Assembly: GCA_951406725.2 (NCBI GenBank)
Contig: OX597823.1
Span: 83,452,001 to 83,516,000, forward strand
Length of the DNA stretch: 64,000 nucleotides
From: Octopus vulgaris
Lineage: Eukaryota
Direction: 5' to 3'
A program made the position numbers and the translations under genes. Shown piece after piece: positions 4,180 to 63,921 of this stretch; position 1 is the first letter of the stretch, and each line of letters starts with the position of its first letter. The notes beneath the pieces were generated by a model. It ran no database searches. It saw nothing but the letters and a program-made list of their open reading frames with translations, and was not told where the DNA came from.

Positions 4180-4626
4180 GTTTTTGTCACATTTTTTTTC
4201 CTTGTTTTTACCCCTCTGCAAAGGAATTTTATTTAATTCCTTCGCAGAAAGGACTAGTTCGACGAGACGTGTTCTGTCCTCACCTTCGAAACACGCTGGA
4301 GTTGAACTAGGGACGGCTGATGAAGGGGATTTTTCCTTGTGTAGTTGTCTGGTACTCTGATTTTTCGTTGTTAAAGGAATGGTCCGTTCCATGCTGTTTT
4401 TACGTTTTCGTTTCTCGTTGAGTTCTACGTCTAATTGTGGTGTCCTGTACACACGTATATATATTTATATATGCATGTATATATACATTTAGATGTAGGT
4501 ACGTACATATATGTTTGTATGTATGCATATATTTTATTTATTACACTATTGTATGACTGAGCGCCTTCGCGTCGATTCGATTCGTTTGGTTTCGTTTCGT
4601 TTCTTCTTCTTCTCTAAGCTGGTTTA

Positions 4627-4703
<77 letters not shown>

Positions 4704-5137
4704 GAAACAAACGTTCCAGATGTTATCTAAATCATTTATATCAGCATATCACCAACATATGTTTCAACAGATGCATTAAAATAAATCGGAGAAGAATAAT
4801 GATATGAAAAAATGCATCTCTTATCTGGGAGGATATAAATAACACTGCTCATCAATAAGTCATTATCAGATAAAAAAAAAATTATCAACTTTTATTATAT
4901 TCATGATATATATTGTTTCTGGTATAAATTAATATTACCAAGAAATATTACCGGTTCCTGGCACATTGGAAAAATAATAATAAAAACTGCCAGTACGCCA
5001 CATCAGATAGCTTGAGAAGCGCTGACATACGCCATTCAGCTGAAAAAGAAATCTAAGAAACGTAATCTTTTACAGAAATTGCCGAAGAAATAATTCCAGT
5101 TTTCAAATATAAGCAAAATGTCGCCCTTTATTGTTTA

Positions 5138-17202: not shown

Positions 17203-17208
<6 letters not shown>

Positions 17209-18065
17209 TTAATAAGGGTGAGAGAATTAGATACTAATTTAATAGTATATCTATTCTACACCAAGTGGCCTAGTGCTCCGAGAAACCTGGATTATTATAA
17301 TATTTTATAATATATTATAATATTTTTACAAAATAAATATAAGAGAGTGGTCACTATATGGCTCACTCTAGCACCAGTTAATCCAAAAGGTTTCAACCAC
17401 AAAAATACATGCTTCCCATGAAAGTCAGTACGATTGTTAGCTCACACGGACAGGGCAAATAAAAAATAACAAAATACAGATTATTTTGGGACAATTGTTT
17501 CGCTATTAATGAATTAAATGTAATTTTACTTACAATAAAATCCACTTGTAGCTCTTCAGCCAAAACTATCTGGATGAAATCCACTCAATCACACGCCAGA
17601 TTTTACCATAACGATAAATACGCGTGTGGTTCAATTGATTACATCCGACGTTATAATTCAAATGCCCCAACTAACAGCGCGCCAAACTTTCACGGAAAAC
17701 AAATACAGCATTTAGAAATAAATGCAGCATAATTATAATTAATTAATAAGGGTGAGAGAATTAGATACTAATTTAATAGTATATCTATTCTACACCAAGT
17801 GGCCTAGTGCTCCGAGAAACCTGGATTATTATAATATTTTATAATATATTATAATATTTTTACAAAATAAATATAAGAGAGTGGTCACTATATGGCTCAC
17901 TCTAGCACCAGTTAATCCAAAAGGTTTCAACCACAAAAATACATGCTTCCCATGAAAGTCAGTACGATTGTTAGCTCACACGGACAGGGCAAATAAAAAA
18001 TAACAAAATACAGATTATTTTGGGACAATTGTTTCGCTATTAATGAATTAAATGTAATTTTACTT

Positions 18066-18068
<3 letters not shown>
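17203..18068 (-). mobile_element. HHR-bearing non-coding tandem element (534-bp unit, ~1.6 copies) inserted in (TA)n
   Basis: 17203-17535 is repeated exactly at 17737-18069, with (TA)n on both sides. Shares AATAAGGGTGA...ACACCAAGTGGCCTAG with 53787-54845. Confidence 0.8.
17484..17565 (-). ncRNA. Type I hammerhead ribozyme, canonical core
   Basis: Minus strand UUUUGG-CUGAAGA-GCUA-(43 nt)-UAGC-GAAA-CAAUUG-UC-CCAAAA: 6-bp stem I, 4-bp stem II, palindromic stem III, GUC triplet. Confidence 0.85.
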
Positions 18069-18106
<38 letters not shown>

Positions 18107-20977: not shown

Positions 20978-21025
20978 AACAGCGGACTAGTTTCGCCTGT
21001 TAATCGCAGGCTCCTCAGCAGTGTT
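20978..21025 (-). ncRNA. Minimal type I hammerhead ribozyme
   Basis: Minus strand AACACUG-CUGAGGA-GCCUG-cgauuaa-CAGGC-GAAA-CUAG-UC-CGCUGUU: perfect core, 5-bp stem II, palindromic stem III, GUC triplet, stem I with one C-C mismatch. Confidence 0.8.
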
Positions 21026-21214
21026 GCTCGGATCGTTCAGCTAAAACCACTGACAGTCTTTATGTTTACCATATAAAATTTATGGCTGATTTAGCGAAAT
21101 GCTTATATGTATACTAAAAATTAAGGCGATCCTTCGGTATAAGTACACATGCGACTTTGTTTACATTTCTGAAGAAAACAGAAACCCTTTTCTCCCACCC
21201 CTAACGCTAAACCC

Positions 21215-21271
<57 letters not shown>

Positions 21272-21339
21272 CAAACACTTTCTTGAAATGTATCCGGTAC
21301 TTATACCGAAGTTACGCCAAAATTAATATAAGCAGCTAA

Positions 21340-21686
21340 GCGCAAACTCTGAGCACCTCTTCAAACTCCACCCATCTAACACCCGTGGACATATTTACAA
21401 AGTAAGAAAACAGCACAGCTCCCATGACTTCAGGAAACATTTTTTCACGCTGAGAGTTGCTGAAGCGTGGAACAAACTGCTGGCATCGGTTGTTAGTTGT
21501 CGGAGCACTGCATCCTTCAAAACTTCCATGCTTCCTGAGATTCGCCAACACTATACTTGATACACACACAAGCATGTTCACTTTCCAGACATTTCTACAT
21601 TACTGCATGTACTTTATATGCACTTTCTGACAAGTTGTGGTGCACCTGAGCACTGTATACAATAATTTCATTATTATTATTATTAT
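21340..21686 (+). mobile_element. CR1-like LINE 3' end
   Basis: Translates to ...TRGHIYKVRKQHSSHDFRKHFFTLRVAEAWNKLLASVVSCRSTASFK, the CR1 ORF2 C-terminal pattern, followed by an (ATT)n tail. Confidence 0.75.
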
Positions 21687-23936: not shown

Positions 23937-25007
23937 ATGGCCGTTATCCCATCGTGCTTCCAACTCACTGAAGAATTCGGTATTAAATGGATTCACCCAG
24001 ACTATTACAGTTGTTTGGAATATATAGGAGGAGGCAGTTTCAGTAACGTGTCATTTGCTCATAACAAACTTACTGAATCGAAGGTGGCCATTAAGCAACT
24101 GTATCGGCCTTTCTCTTCGTTGACTACAACTAAACGTACATACCGCGAGGTTTGCTTGCTAAAACACATGAAACACAAAAATGTTATCGATCTGGTCGAT
24201 ATATTTACAACAGCAATATGTAAAAATGACTTGGATAATCTCTACCTCGTTTCCACATTCTATCCGAAAGATTTGAAAACGATGTTGAAAAGCGAGGAGA
24301 TGGGGTTACCCCTCATCAAGTCCCTGGTCTACCAAATATTCTGTGGACTCTATTATATTCATTCAGCCGGGGTCATCCACCGTGACTTAAAACCCAACAA
24401 CATCGGTGTTACGTCTGATAATTGCATCAAAATTATGGATTTTGGCCTGGCCCGACAGGTCAGTCTTAAAATGACGGGTTATGTGCAAACCCGATGGTAC
24501 CGAGCTCCAGAAATAATCCTTAACTGGGAAAAATACAATCAGACAGCCGATGTGTGGTCTGTGGGTTGTATCCTGGGTGAAATGTTAACAAAACAAGCTG
24601 TGATTCGAGGGCATAATTTCAATGACCAGGTAAAGCAGATATTATGTCTAGTCGGAACACCGGATTATGAAATGCTAAAGAAATTTACCAGTGAAGATGC
24701 TATGGATAGGATTAAACAATTCGGAACCTTTGTAAAACAAGATTTCTCAACTTTTTTTAATACCACAGATGAAGATACACTTAATCTTTTGGATCAAATA
24801 TTTAATTTAGATGTAGATAACCGAATCTCTGTGGACGATGCAATGAAACATCGTTTCTTCGAGGACCATTTCCAAAAGACTGACTGTAAGCATGCGCCAA
24901 ATTTTTGTGACAGATTTTGCGATATTGAATTGAACCAAATGGAATGGTTAGGACTTATTTACGAGGAAATCAAAGACTTCAACTCTAATACACAAACACA
25001 CACATAA
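23937..25007 (+). CDS. Intronless divergent p38-family MAP kinase (MAPK11-14-like), 356 aa
   Basis: Uninterrupted ORF with GGGSFS loop, VAIK, REVCLLKHMKH, HRDLKPNN, DFGLAR, MTGYVQTRWYRAPE and DVWSVGCI. TGY is diagnostic of p38. Confidence 0.95.
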   Translation: MAVIPSCFQLTEEFGIKWIHPDYYSCLEYIGGGSFSNVSFAHNKLTESKVAIKQLYRPFSSLTTTKRTYREVCLLKHMKHKNVIDLVDIFTTAICKNDLDNLYLVSTFYPKDLKTMLKSEEMGLPLIKSLVYQIFCGLYYIHSAGVIHRDLKPNNIGVTSDNCIKIMDFGLARQVSLKMTGYVQTRWYRAPEIILNWEKYNQTADVWSVGCILGEMLTKQAVIRGHNFNDQVKQILCLVGTPDYEMLKKFTSEDAMDRIKQFGTFVKQDFSTFFNTTDEDTLNLLDQIFNLDVDNRISVDDAMKHRFFEDHFQKTDCKHAPNFCDRFCDIELNQMEWLGLIYEEIKDFNSNTQTHT

Positions 25008-41589: not shown

Positions 41590-44500
41590 GTCCACTAGAT
41601 AAACTGTCTACAGGTGCAAATTCAATCTACTGTCCACTAGCGCAAATTAGATCAATTGTCCACGAGCGCAAATTCGATCAACTGTCCAATATGCAAATTA
41701 GATCAACTGTCCACTAGCGCAAATTCGATCAACTGCCTACGAGCGCAAATTCAATCTACTGTCCACTAGCGCAAATTGGATCAATTGTCCACGAGCGCAA
41801 ATTCGATCAACTGTCCAATATGCAAATTAGATCAACTGTCCACTAGCGCAAATTCGATCAACTGCCTACGAGCGCAAATTCAATCAACTGTCCAATATGC
41901 AAATTCGATCAACTGTCCACTAGCGCAAATTCGATCAACTGCCCACAACTTTTCAATAGTGAAAATTCGATGAACTGCCCACAAGCACAAATTGGATGAA
42001 CTGTCCAATAGTGAAAATTCGATCAACTGTCCACTTGCGAAAATTCGATCAACTGTCCACTAGTGAAGATTCGATCAATTGTCCACTATCGAAAATTTGA
42101 TCAACTGTCCACTTGTGCAAATTCGATCAACTGTCCACTTGTGTAAATTCGATTATCTGTTAACTAGCAAAAATTCGATCAACTGTCCACTTGCGAAAAT
42201 TCGATCAACTGTCCATTTGTGAAAATTCGATCAATTGACCACTATTAAAAATTCGATCAACTGTCCACATGTGCATATTCGATCAACTGTCAGTTTGTGC
42301 AAATTCGATCAACTGTCCACTAGTGCAAAGTCGATCAACTGTCCACTGGCAAAAATTCGATCAAATGTCCACTTGCAAAAATTCGATCAACTGTCCACTT
42401 GTGCAAATTCGACCAACTGTCCACTTGTGCAAATTCGATCAACTGTCCACTTGTGCAGATTCGATCATCTGTTCACTAGCAAAAATTCGATCAACTGTCC
42501 ACTGGCGAAAATTAGATCAACTGACCATTTGTGAAAATTCGATCAATTGTCCACAAGCCAAAATTCGATCAACTGTCCACTGGTGCAAATTCGATCAATT
42601 GACCACTATAAAAAATTCGATCAACTGTCCACCTGTGCATATTCGATCAACTGTCAGTTTATGCAAATTCGATCAACTGTCCACTAGTGCAAAGTCGATC
42701 AACTGTCCACTGGCAAAAATTCGATCAACTGTCAACTTGCAAAAATTCGATCAACTGTCCACTAGTGCAAATTCGATCAACTGTACACTTGTGCAAATTC
42801 GATCAACTGTCCACTTGTGCAAATTCGATTAACTGTCCACTTGTGCAAAATTCGATCAACTGTCAACTATTAAAAATTCGATCAACTGTCCACCTGTGCA
42901 TATTCGATCAACTGTCCATTTGTTAAAATTCGATCAACTGTCCACTAGTGCAAATTCGATCAACTCTCCACTGGCAAAAATTCGATCAACTGTCCACTTC
43001 TGCAAATTCGATCAACTGTCCACTAGCGAAAATTCGATCAACTGTCCACTATAAAAAATTCGATCAACTGTCCACTTGTGCAAATTCGATCAACTGTCCA
43101 CTACTGAAAATTCGATCAACTGTCCACTAGCGAAAATTCGATCACTTCTGCAAATTCGATCAACTGTCCACTTGTGCAAATTCGATCAACTGTCCACTAG
43201 CGAAAATTCGATCAACTGTCCACTATTAAAAATTCGATCAACTGTCCACTAGTGGAAATTCGATCAACTCTCCACTGGCAAAAATTCGATCAACTGTCCA
43301 CTTGTGCAAATTCGATCAACTGTCCAATAGTGAAGATTCGATCAATTGTCCACTTGTGTAAATTCGATCAACTGTCCACTACTGAAAATTCGATCAACTG
43401 TCCACTTCTGCAAATTCGATCAACTGTCCACTTCTGCAAATTCGATCAACTGTCCATAAGTAAAAATTCGATCAACTGTCCATTTGTTAAACTTCGATCA
43501 ACTGTCCACTAGCGAAAATTCGATCAACTGTCCACTTGCGCAAATTCGATCAACTGTCCACTTGTGCAATTTCGATCAACTGTCCACAAGCGAAAATTCG
43601 ATCAACTGTCCACTACTGAAAATTCGATCAACTGTCCACTTGTGCAAATTCGATCAACTGTCCATTTGTTAAACTTCGATCAACTGTCCACTAGCGAAAA
43701 TACGACCAACTGTCCACTTGTGCAAATTCGATCAACTGTCCCCTAGCGAAAATTCGATCAACTGTTCACAAGCGAAAATTCGATCAACTGTCCACTTGTG
43801 CAAATTCGATCAACTGTCCACTAGCAAAAATTCGATCAACTGTCCATTTGTTAAACTTCGCTCAACTGTCCACTAGTGCAAATTCGATCAACTGTCCACT
43901 TTCAAAAATCCGATCAACTGTCCATTTATTAAAATCCGATCAACTGTCCATTTATTAAAATTCGATCAACTGTCCACTAGTGCAAATTCGATCAACTCTC
44001 CACTGGCAAAAATTCGATCAACTGTCCACTTGTGCAAATTCAATCAACTGTCCACTTGTGAAAATCCGATGAACTCTCCACTTGCGCAAATTCGTTCAAC
44101 TGTCCACTACTGAAAATTCGATCAACTGTCCACTAGCGAAAAATTCGATCAACTGTCTGTTTGTTAAACTGCGATCAACTGTCCACTAGCGAAAATTCGA
44201 TCAACTGTCCACTTATGCAAATTCGATCAATTGTCCACTTGTGCAGATTCGATCAACTGTCCACTAGCGAAAATTCGATCAACTGTCCACTATCAAAAAT
44301 TCGATCAACTGTCCACTAGCGAAAATTCGATCAACTGTCCACTTGTGCAAATTCGATCATCAACTGTCCACTTGCGCAAATTCGATCAACTGTCCACTAC
44401 CGAAAATTCGATCAACTGTTCACAAGCGAAAATTCGATCAACTGTCCACTAGCGAAAATTCGATCAACTGTCCATTTGTTAAACTTCGATCAACTGTCCA

Positions 44501-44995
44501 CTAGCGAAAATTCGATCAACTGTCCACTTGTGCAAATTCGATCAACTGTCCAATAGCGAAAATTCGATCAACTGTCCACTTGTGCAAATTCGATCAACTG
44601 TTCACTTGTGTATATTCGATCAACTGTCCACTAGCCAAAATTGGATCAACTGTCCACTTGCCAAAATTCGATCAACTCTGTACTAGCGCATATTCGATCA
44701 AATATCCACTAGCGTAAATTCGATCAACTGTCCACAAGCCCAAATTCGATTAAGTTTCCAGTTGTGCAAATTCGATCAACTGTCCACTAGTGCAAATTCG
44801 ATCGTCCGCTAGCGAAAATTCGATCAGCTGTCCACTAGCGAAAATTCGATCAACTATCCATTTGTGAAAATTCTATCAACTGTCCATCTTGTGCAAAATC
44901 GATCAAATGTCCTCTGACGCAAATTCAATCTACTGTCCACTAGCGCAAATTCACTCAACGGTCCACTCGCTCACATTCGATCTATTGACCACTAG
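41590..44995. repeat. 26-bp tandem satellite, ~130 units
   Basis: Constant AAATTCGATCAACTGTCCAC plus ~6 variable nt (TTGTGC, TAGCGA, TAGTGC, TACTGA, TATTAA, TGGCAA). Confidence 0.97.
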
Positions 44996-54501: not shown

Positions 54502-54577
54502 ACTCTACTGAGGATTCGAAAATGATTATGTAAGTAAATTTACACAATCTATTAACGATGAAACAATTGTATAGAGT
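54502..54577 (+). ncRNA. Type I hammerhead ribozyme, inverted twin of 53942-54017
   Basis: Same motif on the plus strand. Confidence 0.75.
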
Positions 54578-55265: not shown

Positions 55266-56319
55266 TACCAACATCTACATAAACATGCATAGATTACATA
55301 CATATATATACATATACATATATTCTTTTATTCTCTTACTTGTTTCAGTCATTTGACTGCGGCTATACTGGAGCACCACCTTTAGTCGAGCTCATCGGCC
55401 CCAAGTTGATAAAAGGTTACGATTTTCTTGTATACACACTTCGACACTCTGCTTATGAGTAAATACATACATACATACATACATACATACATACATACAT
55501 ACATACATACATACATACATACATACACACATACATACATACAATACATACATACATACATACATACATACATACATACACATACATACATACACACACA
55601 TACATACATACATACATACATACATACATACATACATACATACAGTTTAGTACTTATCCTATCGTTCACTTTTGCCGAATCGCTAGGTAACTGGGACGTA
55701 AACACACCGGCATTGGTTGTCAAGCGATGTTAGGTGGATGGGGGACAAACACACACACACATTATATATGCACACACACACTCACACACACATATATATA
55801 TATATATATACACACACGTATACACGCACATACGCACGCACACATACATATCTGTATATAGATATAGATATGTAAATATCTATCTATCTATGGAAAAAAT
55901 GTGTCGAAGCTGTCAGGAGGCGTTCGATGCAACGGTGGTGTACCCCCTACTGTCACGTTCTTGTTAGATTGACAGTATACAACCATTCTATCGCCCCACC
56001 ACCGTACATGTCTCTACGAGAGATTTAGAAATTCAATATTTCTTATATATATATATATGTAATAAAAATAGTAATGCAATACGAGAGTATTGCTTTCCAG
56101 TAAAGAATAGCCCGTGAGGGAAAATTATACATAGAAGTAAATATATGGTACAAAGAAGTACCGATATTTACTGGAAAATAGCGAACGTAATAAATACGAC
56201 GCTAATGTATAGCTTCACCGCGTATGTACTAGCAAAAATGCGTGTGTGCAACAAACTTGAAAAAAATTGTCTTACCTCCAGGGAGAACATCTGAAAGATG
56301 AAATACCTAGAAAGGGATA

Positions 56320-56392
56320 ATGTGGTACCGGTTTCAGATTTTTCAAGATATGTCTGCACACATATACTTGATTTATCTTCATCAGCCAACAT
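56320..56392 (-). ncRNA. Type I hammerhead ribozyme with extended stem II
   Basis: AUG-U-UGG-CUGAUGA-AGAU-aaa-UCAAG-u-AUAUGU-gugcag-ACAUAU-CUUGA-aaa-AUCU-GAAA-CCGG-UA-CCA-CAU. Confidence 0.85.
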
Positions 56393-56696
56393 ATACCTCG
56401 ACAACATTTCAAATGTTGCCGCAGCGATGCCAATACACTCGACTGAAACGCCAAAACGCTGACAGAACGAGAACAGTGAAGAAGTTTCAATAAAAATAGT
56501 AATGCAATACGAGAGTATTGCTTTCCAGTAAAGAATATACTTCTATGTATAATTTTCCCTCACGGGCTATTCTTTACTGGAAAGCAATACTATTTTTATT
56601 GAAACTTCTTCACTGTTCTCGTTCTGTCAGCGTTTTGGCGTTTCAGTCGAGTGTATTGGCATTGGTGCGGCAACATTTGAAATGTTGTCGAGGTAT

Positions 56697-56769
56697 ATGT
56701 TGGCTGATGAAGATAAATCAAGTATATGTGTGCAGACATATCTTGAAAAATCTGAAACCGATACCACAT
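56697..56769 (+). ncRNA. Type I hammerhead ribozyme, inverted twin with a G>A change in stem III
   Basis: As 56320-56392 but GAAACCGAUA instead of GAAACCGGUA. Confidence 0.7.
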
Positions 56770-56950
56770 TATCCCTTTCTAGGTATTTCATCTTTCAGAT
56801 GTTCTCCCTGGAGGTAAGACAATTTTTTCAAGTTTGTTGCACACACGCATTTTTGCTAGTACATACGCGGTGAAGCTATACATTAGCGTCGTATTTATTA
56901 CGTTCGCTATTTTCCAGTAAATATCGGTTGTACCATATATTTACTTTATG

Positions 56951-57030
<80 letters not shown>

Positions 57031-57746
57031 GTATATATATATGCTGCATATTCCGAAACGAAGACAACGAGTGAGGAAAGGATAAAATTGAATTTAAAAG
57101 AAATATCTTTTTTTTCTTGAAATGTTAATCTACGATATCGAAAACAGAATTCCGAAGACATTTTCAAAAACATTAAATAAGTAAAGTAAATAAAAATAGA
57201 TAGATAGATAAATAAATAAATAAATAAAAGGTTACGACTCTTTGCTTATGAGTACCTACATACATACATACATACATACATACATACATACATACATACA
57301 TACATACATACATACATACATACGTACGTACATACATACATACATACATACATACATACATACATACGTACTTACATACATATATACACACACACGTGGA
57401 TCACTATATGATAAAGAAATGTCGTTGTGTGTGTGCATGTATATAGTTGTGTGTATGTATATATATATATACGTATATGCGAATGTGTATGTATAAATGT
57501 TTATACACACACACATATGTATAATGGAAAAAGAAAAAGTTACTGCAATTTTGAAATAATCACAAACTCAGTTAGTAACCAATCAATTGATCCGTGCATG
57601 ATATTTTTTTTCTCTTTGACTTGCGTTCTTCAAATCGCGTACCATTTCGACTTTGCGTTCCTTTGTTTTTTCTTAAAAACATCTAATACTTCAGTTACAA
57701 AATGTCTAACCTGATCTGAACGTGTTCTGAAAAGTTTTTCAATATA

Positions 57747-60859: not shown

Positions 60860-61412
60860 AGTTCAGCCAAATTTAGATTCAGATGAATATGGTACTTAAG
60901 TTAAAGGCACCAGAATTTTGTATGGTATTATCCATATAAATCAAATGGGGTGATTATAATCAAAATAAGCAACAAAGATATCCAAGGTAGAGTAGTATAA
61001 TTGTTTCATGCTATTTCATTTTATTAAACCGTGTAAGTATTACATCAGTTTTAAAATGTCGAGCAATCTTCAGCCACATATAAATTTTTTCAATTAAACG
61101 GACAATGCGCATTCTTATACCTTTTCGTTTGCCAACATTGCAAAGAGGGTAGATATATAGACAGAGAGGTTAATTTCATCATTAAGAACATGATGGTAGT
61201 ATGTTCATTCTCCGGATTTATCTACCCTCTTTGTAATGTTGGCAAATGAAAAGGTATAAGAATGCGCATTGTCCGTTTAATTGAAAAATTCTATATGTGG
61301 CTGAAGATTGCTCGACATTTTAAAACTGATGTAATACTTACACGGTTTAATAAAATGAAGTAGTATGAAACAATTATACTACTCTACCTTGGATATCCTT
61401 GTTGTTTATTTA
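60860..61412. mobile_element. HHR-bearing element with inverted duplication, in (TA)n
   Basis: ~60963-61155 is inverted at ~61219-61412. HHR motifs at 60992-61077 (-) and 61297-61382 (+): GUGG-CUGAAGA-UUGC...GCAU-GAAA-CAAUUA-UA-CUAC. Confidence 0.7.
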
Positions 61413-61430
61413 TTATATATATATATGCTG

Positions 61431-63843: not shown

Positions 63844-63921
63844 ATCCCCGGCCTGAAGAGCAGCCTGCAGTATACACCTCACTTGGATATTTACCACTTA
63901 TGAAACATATGTAGCCCGGAT
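63844..63921 (+). ncRNA. Hammerhead ribozyme motif in the presumed 3' pLTR of the Penelope-like element
   Basis: AUCC-CC-GGC-CUGAAGA-GC...AU-GAAA-CAUAUG-UA-GCC-C-GGAU: core and palindromic stem III intact, stem II weak. Confidence 0.65.

Follow-up and report, generated by a model that had tools for sequence, protein, structure and literature searches.

A pair of hammerhead ribozyme motifs on opposite strands raises the question of what kind of element laid it down and of whether either motif can still act. Such a pair lies in the genome of Octopus vulgaris (contig OX597823.1, positions 83,452,001 to 83,516,000; this stretch of 64,000 nucleotides is referred to below as the window, and all positions are counted within it). 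The initial annotation, made from the sequence alone, had placed it at 56320..56769. The pair is indeed found there, but the element that carries it reaches further, from 56061 to 56956.

The hammerhead motif and the element that carries it

The intact type I hammerhead occupies 56385-56326 on the minus strand, with C3 at 56385, a GUA triplet, and the predicted cleavage nucleotide, A17, at 56326. Read 5′ to 3′, it is composed of UGG, the core CUGAUGA (56379..56385, identified by sequence and descriptor), a stem II domain of 43 nt (56336..56378), GAA, the hexamer ACCGGU (56327..56332), A, and CCA. The core CUGANGA, GAAA, and NUH site of a type I hammerhead are present as CUGAUGA, GAAA, and GUA, and the intact core with a palindromic ACCGGU that had been announced is confirmed. 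UGG and CCA belong to stem I, whose 5′ strand (3 bp, a bulged U, 5 bp, and 4 bp) spans 56386..56399 in the constrained fold and has its partner at about 56312-56325. ACCGGU forms stem III, and the descriptor, folding, and the palindrome-keeping variants of the family designate it as the predicted dimerization element.

The stem II domain, delimited by sequence, folding, and pair probabilities, starts with AGAU/AUCU, where the closing pair is A-U, and continues through an AAA/AAA loop, UCAAG/CUUGA, a bulged U, and AUAUGU/ACAUAU to the terminal loop GUGCAG. The helices UCAAG/CUUGA and AUAUGU/ACAUAU had been named beforehand and both stand, but the A-rich loop said to separate them lies instead between AGAU/AUCU and UCAAG/CUUGA, and the named helices are split by the single bulged U. 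The domain folds at −11.7 kcal/mol, a value reached by 1 of 1000 shuffles. The terminal loop (56354-56359, minus strand) contains the self-complementary UGCA, which is paired intermolecularly in a two-molecule fold.

Stems I and II can be folded around the core, with the ends in stem I, at −18.8 kcal/mol under constraint as compared with a minimum free energy of −21.6 kcal/mol. In the circular 428-nt unit, pair probabilities are 0.89-0.99 for the proximal helix of stem II and 0.22-0.43 for stem I. The whole 106-nt hammerhead region folds no better than its shuffles (z −1.15 and −0.83). With a relaxed hammerhead descriptor, 8 motifs are detected in the window, whereas a shuffled window yields 0.05 on average (100 shuffles), an excess indicating that the motif is not due to chance; the strict descriptor finds none in 100 shuffles.

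Rfam yields no hammerhead match in the whole window at the gathering score and none among the 14 matches obtained for 56250-56850 with E up to 10; miRNA-type Rfam matches at the junction hairpin lie far below the family thresholds and were discarded. The min-HHR consensus (Cervera 2014) has a G10.1-C11.1 pair, an extra base before it, and a short helix II, whereas the octopus motif has an A-U pair, no extra base, and the 43-nt domain. By each sequence feature tested, the motif is a palindromic, dimer-type type I hammerhead, but the base and the length of its stem II set it outside Rfam and the min-HHR consensus. The hammerheads described in the pseudo-LTRs of Penelope-like elements (PLEs) share with it the CUGANGA/GAAA core, the NUH site, and a short palindromic helix III that needs a dimer (Cervera and De la Pena 2014, PMC4209133). 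They have, however, a helix II of at most 7-8 bp with a short loop, whereas the octopus unit has a three-segment stem II domain of 43 nt, an A-U closing pair without an extra base before helix II, and no ORF attached (PMC4209133).

The element consists of two arms. The left arm (56061..56537, minus strand, read from 56537 to 56061) comprises one unit and a 49-bp terminal repeat, that is, 1.11 units, and 56061-56109 is exactly equal to 56489-56537. The unit has a GC content of 37% and an exact period of 428 bp, which corrects the 429 bp first given. The right arm, or inverted twin (56535..56956, plus strand), starts at the equivalent of 56142 and ends at the equivalent of 56124. It differs from the left arm by deletions of 16, 7, and 1 nt, the 16-nt deletion falling where the unit junction is crossed, and by 3 substitutions in the main body; from this small divergence, the insertion would be either young or homogenized. 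Each arm is slightly longer than one unit and passes both the unit junction and the predicted cut site. The alignment of the arms stops at 56124/56956, and a 3′ extension of 63 bp, the tail (56061..56123, minus strand), is present in the left arm only. At the head-to-head junction (56507..56593), the arms overlap at 56535-56537, and the terminal repeat forms a local palindrome with its inverted copy. The 5′ ends of the arms meet there, and the 3′ ends face (TA)n tracts, namely, a target remnant at 56044..56058 on the left and a tract at 56955..57042 on the right, within which a target-site duplication would not stand out.

A head-to-head inverted copy, a partial tandem, a one-arm tail, and a (TA)n target are all features of Penelope-like insertion. 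Craig et al. (2021) described PLE inverted copies, one-sided tails, and (TA)n targeting, with (TA)n targets in the Hydra, Naiad, and Neptune types (PMC8557442). Head-to-head is the usual PLE inversion, and the tail is optional (PMC3846280, PMC8557442); Frangieh et al. (2024) explained it by the use of two RT start sites, the tail being the interval that separates them (PMC11167929). At 63 bp, the tail of the left arm is above the published 30-40 bp.

Coding capacity was searched in the window and in the unit. RT and GIY-YIG gave no match in 150 of the 171 long frames of the window, the left-out frames being mostly satellite, SINE, and kinase, and no autonomous PLE structure (an ORF with RT and GIY-YIG between pLTRs) is found at the locus. 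A 124-codon frame (56171-56542) has no match among the longer proteins (89 candidates), in Pfam, or in Atlas, and its coding role was rejected because it is broken by the twin and by common 1-nt deletions at 56175 and 56191-56192. On the minus strand of the doubled unit, a frame of 153 codons without a stop extends from 56133 across the junction to 56171; 3 of 1000 shuffles give one as long. The ATG of this frame lies near the short 3′ end; the frame is without homologue and is broken in the twin. Splice-like signals are also observed on the minus strand of the unit at 56275-56171 and 56466-56459 (GAG/GUAAGA, UUUUCCAG, and the pyrimidine-rich UCUGUCAG), and introns occur in Penelope-like elements. 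A candidate 105-nt intron at 56275-56171 (GUAAGA ... UUUUCCAG) was rejected, as it has no matching joint among the 9 joints listed.

Stem III, the twin, and the predicted dimer

Type I hammerheads with a palindromic helix III occur in PLE terminal repeats, where they are dimer-dependent and of low activity in vitro (PMC4209133). Low or no cleavage in vitro has been reported for genuine motifs of this kind (PMC4209133; bioRxiv 10.64898/2026.07.22.740005), and Li et al. (2026) observed cleavage in 1 of 9 dimers (bioRxiv 10.64898/2026.07.22.740005). Dual hammerheads on opposite strands, 100-700 bp apart, are present in Schistosoma (PMC4209133).

The twin hammerhead (56704..56763, plus strand) is identical to the minus-strand motif at 56385-56326 in all but its stem III, which reads ACCGAU, as the initial annotation had recognized. 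The difference is a G-to-A change at 56761, by which the palindrome is broken, the GUA triplet becomes AUA, and the pair 15.2-16.2 is lost. That the intact motif is of the dimer type and that the lesion is damaging had both been claimed, and both claims agree with the models. The palindrome duplex is predicted at −8.3 kcal/mol for the intact motif and at −1.3 kcal/mol for the twin. A modeled double hammerhead with swapped stem I strands reaches −47.3 kcal/mol for two intact copies against −43.2 for two monomers, −40.6 for an intact copy with a twin, and −33.9 for two twins against −38.2 for the two monomers. In the monomer, stem III would be reduced to one pair, as a 2-nt loop is impossible, at a cost of about 5 kcal/mol (−13.5 vs −18.8). 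The unconstrained two-molecule fold is inactive and, at −55.9 kcal/mol, lies below the modeled double hammerhead, so that the model speaks for feasibility and not for activity.

The G-to-A change of the twin is absent among 40 of 49 family variant rows, and the lesion is likely a private mutation that, judging from the modeled energies, disables the twin. The two motifs, which differ by this one base, thus offer a natural control for dependence on the dimer. Since the twins are on opposite strands, neither can be the dimer partner of the other within one transcript. In the predicted fold of a read-through RNA of the locus, the transcript doubles back and all of the core is paired; given one hammerhead per strand and a predicted snap-back hairpin of about 400 bp, both motifs at this locus are probably inert.

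The 428-bp family and its neighbors in the window

The repeat stretch is present in 20 of the 24 sequencing runs listed (8 studies, 4 organism labels); these data are contigs, and no run is on record as RNA. In four runs, 683, 1124, 123, and 335 contigs match the 428-bp repeat, which is multi-copy in all four. A common variant has GUC in place of GUA at the cut site (7, 13, 4, and 7 contigs in the four runs). Two stem III variants are perfect palindromes, ACCUGCAGGU, found in one X1 contig (depth 3683 of 18962) and in loose ends of X9 and X16, and ACCGGCGCCGGU, found in one X9 contig; a palindromic stem III is retained in both longer length variants of the family. Variant rows at one X1 depth have a base added within the UGCA loop and UGCA added to stem III.

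Diverged contigs (X9 record 31, 176 nt with 16 differences, and X16 record 16) span the tail-to-unit junction, which is also contained in one diverged X9 loose end. Its presence in other copies indicates that the short 428-bp period is a family trait. Inversion-type joints account for 6 of the 9 joints listed, at differing places and in one contig each; among the 9, 3 change strand, 3 lead into the inverted arm (56549-56560), and 3 are internal deletions. Summed over the contigs, depth on the 3′ side of the cut site exceeds that over the motif several-fold. This fall near the cut site was set aside as evidence, because the depth of contigs does not measure copy number and diverged subfamilies are lost from it.

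The window holds 8 hammerheads at 5 loci. Besides the 56-kb pair, the descriptor finds a hammerhead at 17 kb (17559-17490, minus strand), an inverted pair at 54 kb (54011-53948, minus, and 54508-54571, plus), and an inverted pair at 61 kb (61073-60996, minus, and 61301-61378, plus). A hammerhead-like single motif at 64 kb (63853-63913, plus strand) has the palindromic ACAUAUGU and a GUA site. In all 8 motifs, the core halves are 42-59 nt apart, and stem III is palindromic or damaged at one pair. The 17-, 54-, 56-, and 61-kb motifs have a short proximal helix, an internal loop after the first 3-5 bp, and distal helices; the 64-kb motif has a 42-nt stem II region that does not form a single helix. 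The 64-kb and 61-kb units are weakly similar (1 of 200 shuffles). At the base of stem II, the 61-kb motifs share U-U with Hydra-clade motifs. The 61-kb inverted pair (60955-61417) has a 59-nt stem II domain, ACAAUUAU on both motifs, the palindrome being broken in both, and (TA)n flanks. The 17-kb locus (17203-18070) contains 1.6 direct units of period 534 between (TA)n tracts, and its upstream unit is cut inside stem II and is without CUGANGA.

Homology links the 17-kb and 54-kb units (0 of 200 shuffles), which are ORF-less and have periods of 534 and 525. The initial annotation considered the 56-kb element as unrelated to this family, as apparently an independent lineage, and as having the same insertion behavior; the last point holds, and the others hold in part. 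Lenient local alignment of the 56-kb unit with the 17-kb and 54-kb units is not significant (14 of 200 and 130 of 200 shuffles as good, respectively), but the 200 nt downstream of the 56-kb cut site give an alignment with the 17-kb unit that 1 of 300 shuffles equals, which is the one significant result among 8 anchored tests for the 56-kb unit. From these alignments, the 56-kb unit appears as a separate family that may be a remote relative of the 17-kb unit. The long multi-segment stem II recurs in the 17-, 54-, and 61-kb motifs; it is therefore no mark of the 56-kb lineage and appears common to these octopus elements.

As a circle, the 428-nt unit folds at −121 kcal/mol (z −7.3, 0 of 100 shuffles), and the circular z of the 17-kb and 54-kb units is −7.2 and −9.2; since z < −5 is also reached by 2 of 10 control stretches, this measure is not specific. 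The two controls, at about 4500-4930 and 21000-21430, fold far better than their shuffles (z −5.4 and −6.2). Other repeats of the window are a near-perfect palindrome at its start (1-354, with 167-bp arms), which is without a hammerhead by the descriptor, and a minisatellite at 41800-44750 with about 100 copies of a 26-bp unit. The window also contains an intronless p38-type MAP kinase frame of 356 aa (23937-25007, plus strand) with diverged paralogues in octopuses and Argonauta. Its best named relatives, which by themselves point to an octopus as host, are in Octopus vulgaris (85% identity), O. bimaculoides (95% over half the length), and Argonauta (73%); identity to the p38 of other animals is about 45%, and the frame looks like a member of an octopod-specific retrogene family.

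Relatives were also sought elsewhere. Nine short family-specific motif queries gave no match in the published Naiad/Hydra sequences, which include one octopus Hydra family and in which line breaks weaken the search; a generic 9-mer matched an unrelated coding region there. A link with Naiad through the published HHR_half_core label (35-50 nt spacing; octopus and squid Naiads) was rejected, as the 3′ ends of two Octopus Naiads are unlike these units. A metagenome scan with a 21-mer gave 1 match, inside an unrelated coding region and attributed to chance, and viral contigs gave no match to the element.

Nature of the element and its significance

Hydra-clade hammerheads, including that of Hydra-1_Obim, share with the octopus units (TA)n targets and a motif near the 3′ end (PMC8557442). 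Their stem III is likewise palindromic or near-palindromic, being ACC...GGU in Hydra-1_Obim, and U-U or A-U is found at the base of stem II both in this clade and in the 54-, 56-, and 61-kb motifs (PMC8557442). However, the Hydra-clade elements are autonomous and 2-2.7 kb long, the spacing between their core halves is at most 26 nt in 26 of 26 rows as against 42-59 nt in the window, and no sequence shared with the octopus units was seen (PMC8557442). A Hydra-clade element with a hammerhead of short stem II has already been published from Octopus bimaculoides (PMC8557442). Plant PLE-X motifs have long loops and Chara Chlamys motifs have ACCGGU (PMC8557442), so that both features have precedents among PLEs.

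Metazoan non-LTR retrozymes are non-coding units of 150-450 bp with GC <50% and a type I hammerhead (PMC7229834; bioRxiv 10.64898/2026.07.22.740005), for which Cervera and de la Pena (2020) regarded PLEs as candidate mobilizers (PMC7229834). The octopus unit agrees in size and composition (428 bp, GC 37%, a type I hammerhead, and no known protein). It is retrozyme-like also in its highly self-paired predicted circle that leaves the motif foldable, and retrozymes have been proposed as non-autonomous PLE derivatives (PMC7229834). Retrozymes form direct tandem arrays, whereas the 56-kb locus has 1.0-1.1 units per arm, inverted (PMC7229834); no direct tandem of two complete hammerheads, the two-unit arrangement of non-LTR retrozymes, is found there. 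The 428-bp element probably behaves like a non-LTR retrozyme mobilized by a PLE and, having no ORF, is not an autonomous PLE.

It appears rather probable, on the whole, that this 428-bp multi-copy octopus repeat with a palindromic-stem-III type I hammerhead is a non-autonomous, retrozyme-like, Penelope-derived element, inserted here as a head-to-head pair in (TA)n. What it builds on is observed directly: the motif and the length of the unit, the geometry of the arms with the tail and the (TA)n flanks, the many copies of the family with their stem III variants, and the junction found in other copies. Less favorable to it are the lack of an autonomous partner or RT/GIY-YIG sequence among the frames searched, the missing direct tandem, the long tail, the A-U closing pair, the inactive two-molecule fold of lower energy, the 153-codon frame, for which it offers no explanation, and the negative queries of the Naiad/Hydra sequences. 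Source loci or RNA circles would yield a multi-unit RNA, in which two hammerheads would pair via ACCGGU, swap their stem I strands, and cut after GUA. The cutting would release unit-length RNA, possibly ligated into circles. A (TA)n-targeting Penelope-like RT/endonuclease, for which the Hydra clade is the best candidate, would then act in trans and reverse transcribe uncut RNA, tandem or circular, beginning at two sites; the product would be two arms longer than one unit, one of them with a tail. In one purified system, the hammerhead is protein-assisted and its cleavage is dispensable for insertion in vitro (PMC11167929). Recently active Penelope families have been listed in O. vulgaris in a paper whose main text does not mention ribozymes (PMC13282606), and phylogeny supports the mobilization of retrozymes by PLEs (Li et al. 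2026, bioRxiv 10.64898/2026.07.22.740005).

Alternatively, the locus might represent truncated inverted pseudo-LTR debris of an autonomous PLE, in which case the 428-bp unit would not lead an independent life cycle and its hammerhead would serve the parent. Indeed, PLE hammerheads mostly occur singly, scattered in truncated copies (PMC4209133), an inverted pLTR with a tail is standard (PMC8557442, PMC3846280), the higher depth 3′ of the cut site is as from 5′ truncation, and an ORF junction could lie beyond the 24 of 205 loose ends listed. However, both arms cross the tail-to-unit junction with no ORF between, the same junction occurs in diverged copies of other runs, and the 17-kb and 54-kb loci likewise have short ORF-less periods of 534 and 525 bp; an origin as debris is considered unlikely.

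The long stem II of the retrozyme-like element is most likely a tolerated extension in which the first internal loop would replace loop 2. It might instead characterize an atypical, faster hammerhead, with the A-rich loop docking on the irregular stem I or UGCA acting as a second dimer contact; cleavage would then depend on more than stem III, and the twin might keep some activity. Loop-loop contacts raise the activity of natural hammerheads (PMC3088659), the internal loop after the first 3-5 bp recurs in the 17-, 54-, 56-, and 61-kb motifs, and UGCA pairs between molecules in the unconstrained fold. This proposal is nonetheless doubtful: the 64-kb motif folds otherwise, a family variant at 56356 inserts a base in the UGCA loop, the loops of other families are non-palindromic, and a monomer bears the cost of about 5 kcal/mol for its one-pair stem III.

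A foldback DNA transposon or a palindrome left by local DNA repair, in which the hammerhead was merely carried along, would fit the near identity of the arms (about 99% alike in substitutions) and the (TA)n flanks, which are also typical of some DNA transposons. It is, however, very improbable, as the arm ends are unequal, each arm exceeds one unit, the inversion points differ among copies, and the 54-kb and 61-kb hammerhead loci are also inverted pairs. Finally, a chance likeness within an AT-rich hairpin, to which the negative Rfam search and the ordinary folding of the 106-nt region might be referred, is scarcely credible in view of the 8 motifs against 0.05 expected and of the palindrome- and triplet-keeping variants of the family.

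For a retrozyme-like, Penelope-derived element, the motif itself is no surprise, since the element class has already been published. What is new is an octopus ORF-less unit that combines the full PLE insertion signature with a long stem II missed by standard searches. No octopus retrozyme or long-stem-II motif was found in the literature, a search to which the repeat libraries Repbase and Dfam did not belong, and the supplements of PMC7229834 and PMC4209133 may show mollusc motifs with a long helix II. Published searches limited the spacer between the core halves (7-17 nt in one descriptor, PMC8557442), and long-stem-II hammerheads may consequently be under-counted in cephalopods. The mobilization of animal retrozymes by PLEs has so far been proposed from co-occurrence and phylogeny, and an ORF-less 428-bp unit with a PLE signature offers a clean test case for it. 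More tentatively, octopus genomes might be densely populated by ORF-less hammerhead retroelements that no catalogue lists (5 loci in 64 kb) and that their long multi-segment stem II hides from Rfam and from short-spacer descriptors. Their insertions would combine the anatomy of a retrozyme with the Penelope signature, and the arms, which cross the cut site and the unit junction, would be the footprint of a Penelope-like RT rolling on circular RNA. If true, this would be direct structural evidence that the PLE machinery mobilizes retrozyme circles and would reveal a new stem II architecture tuning cleavage.
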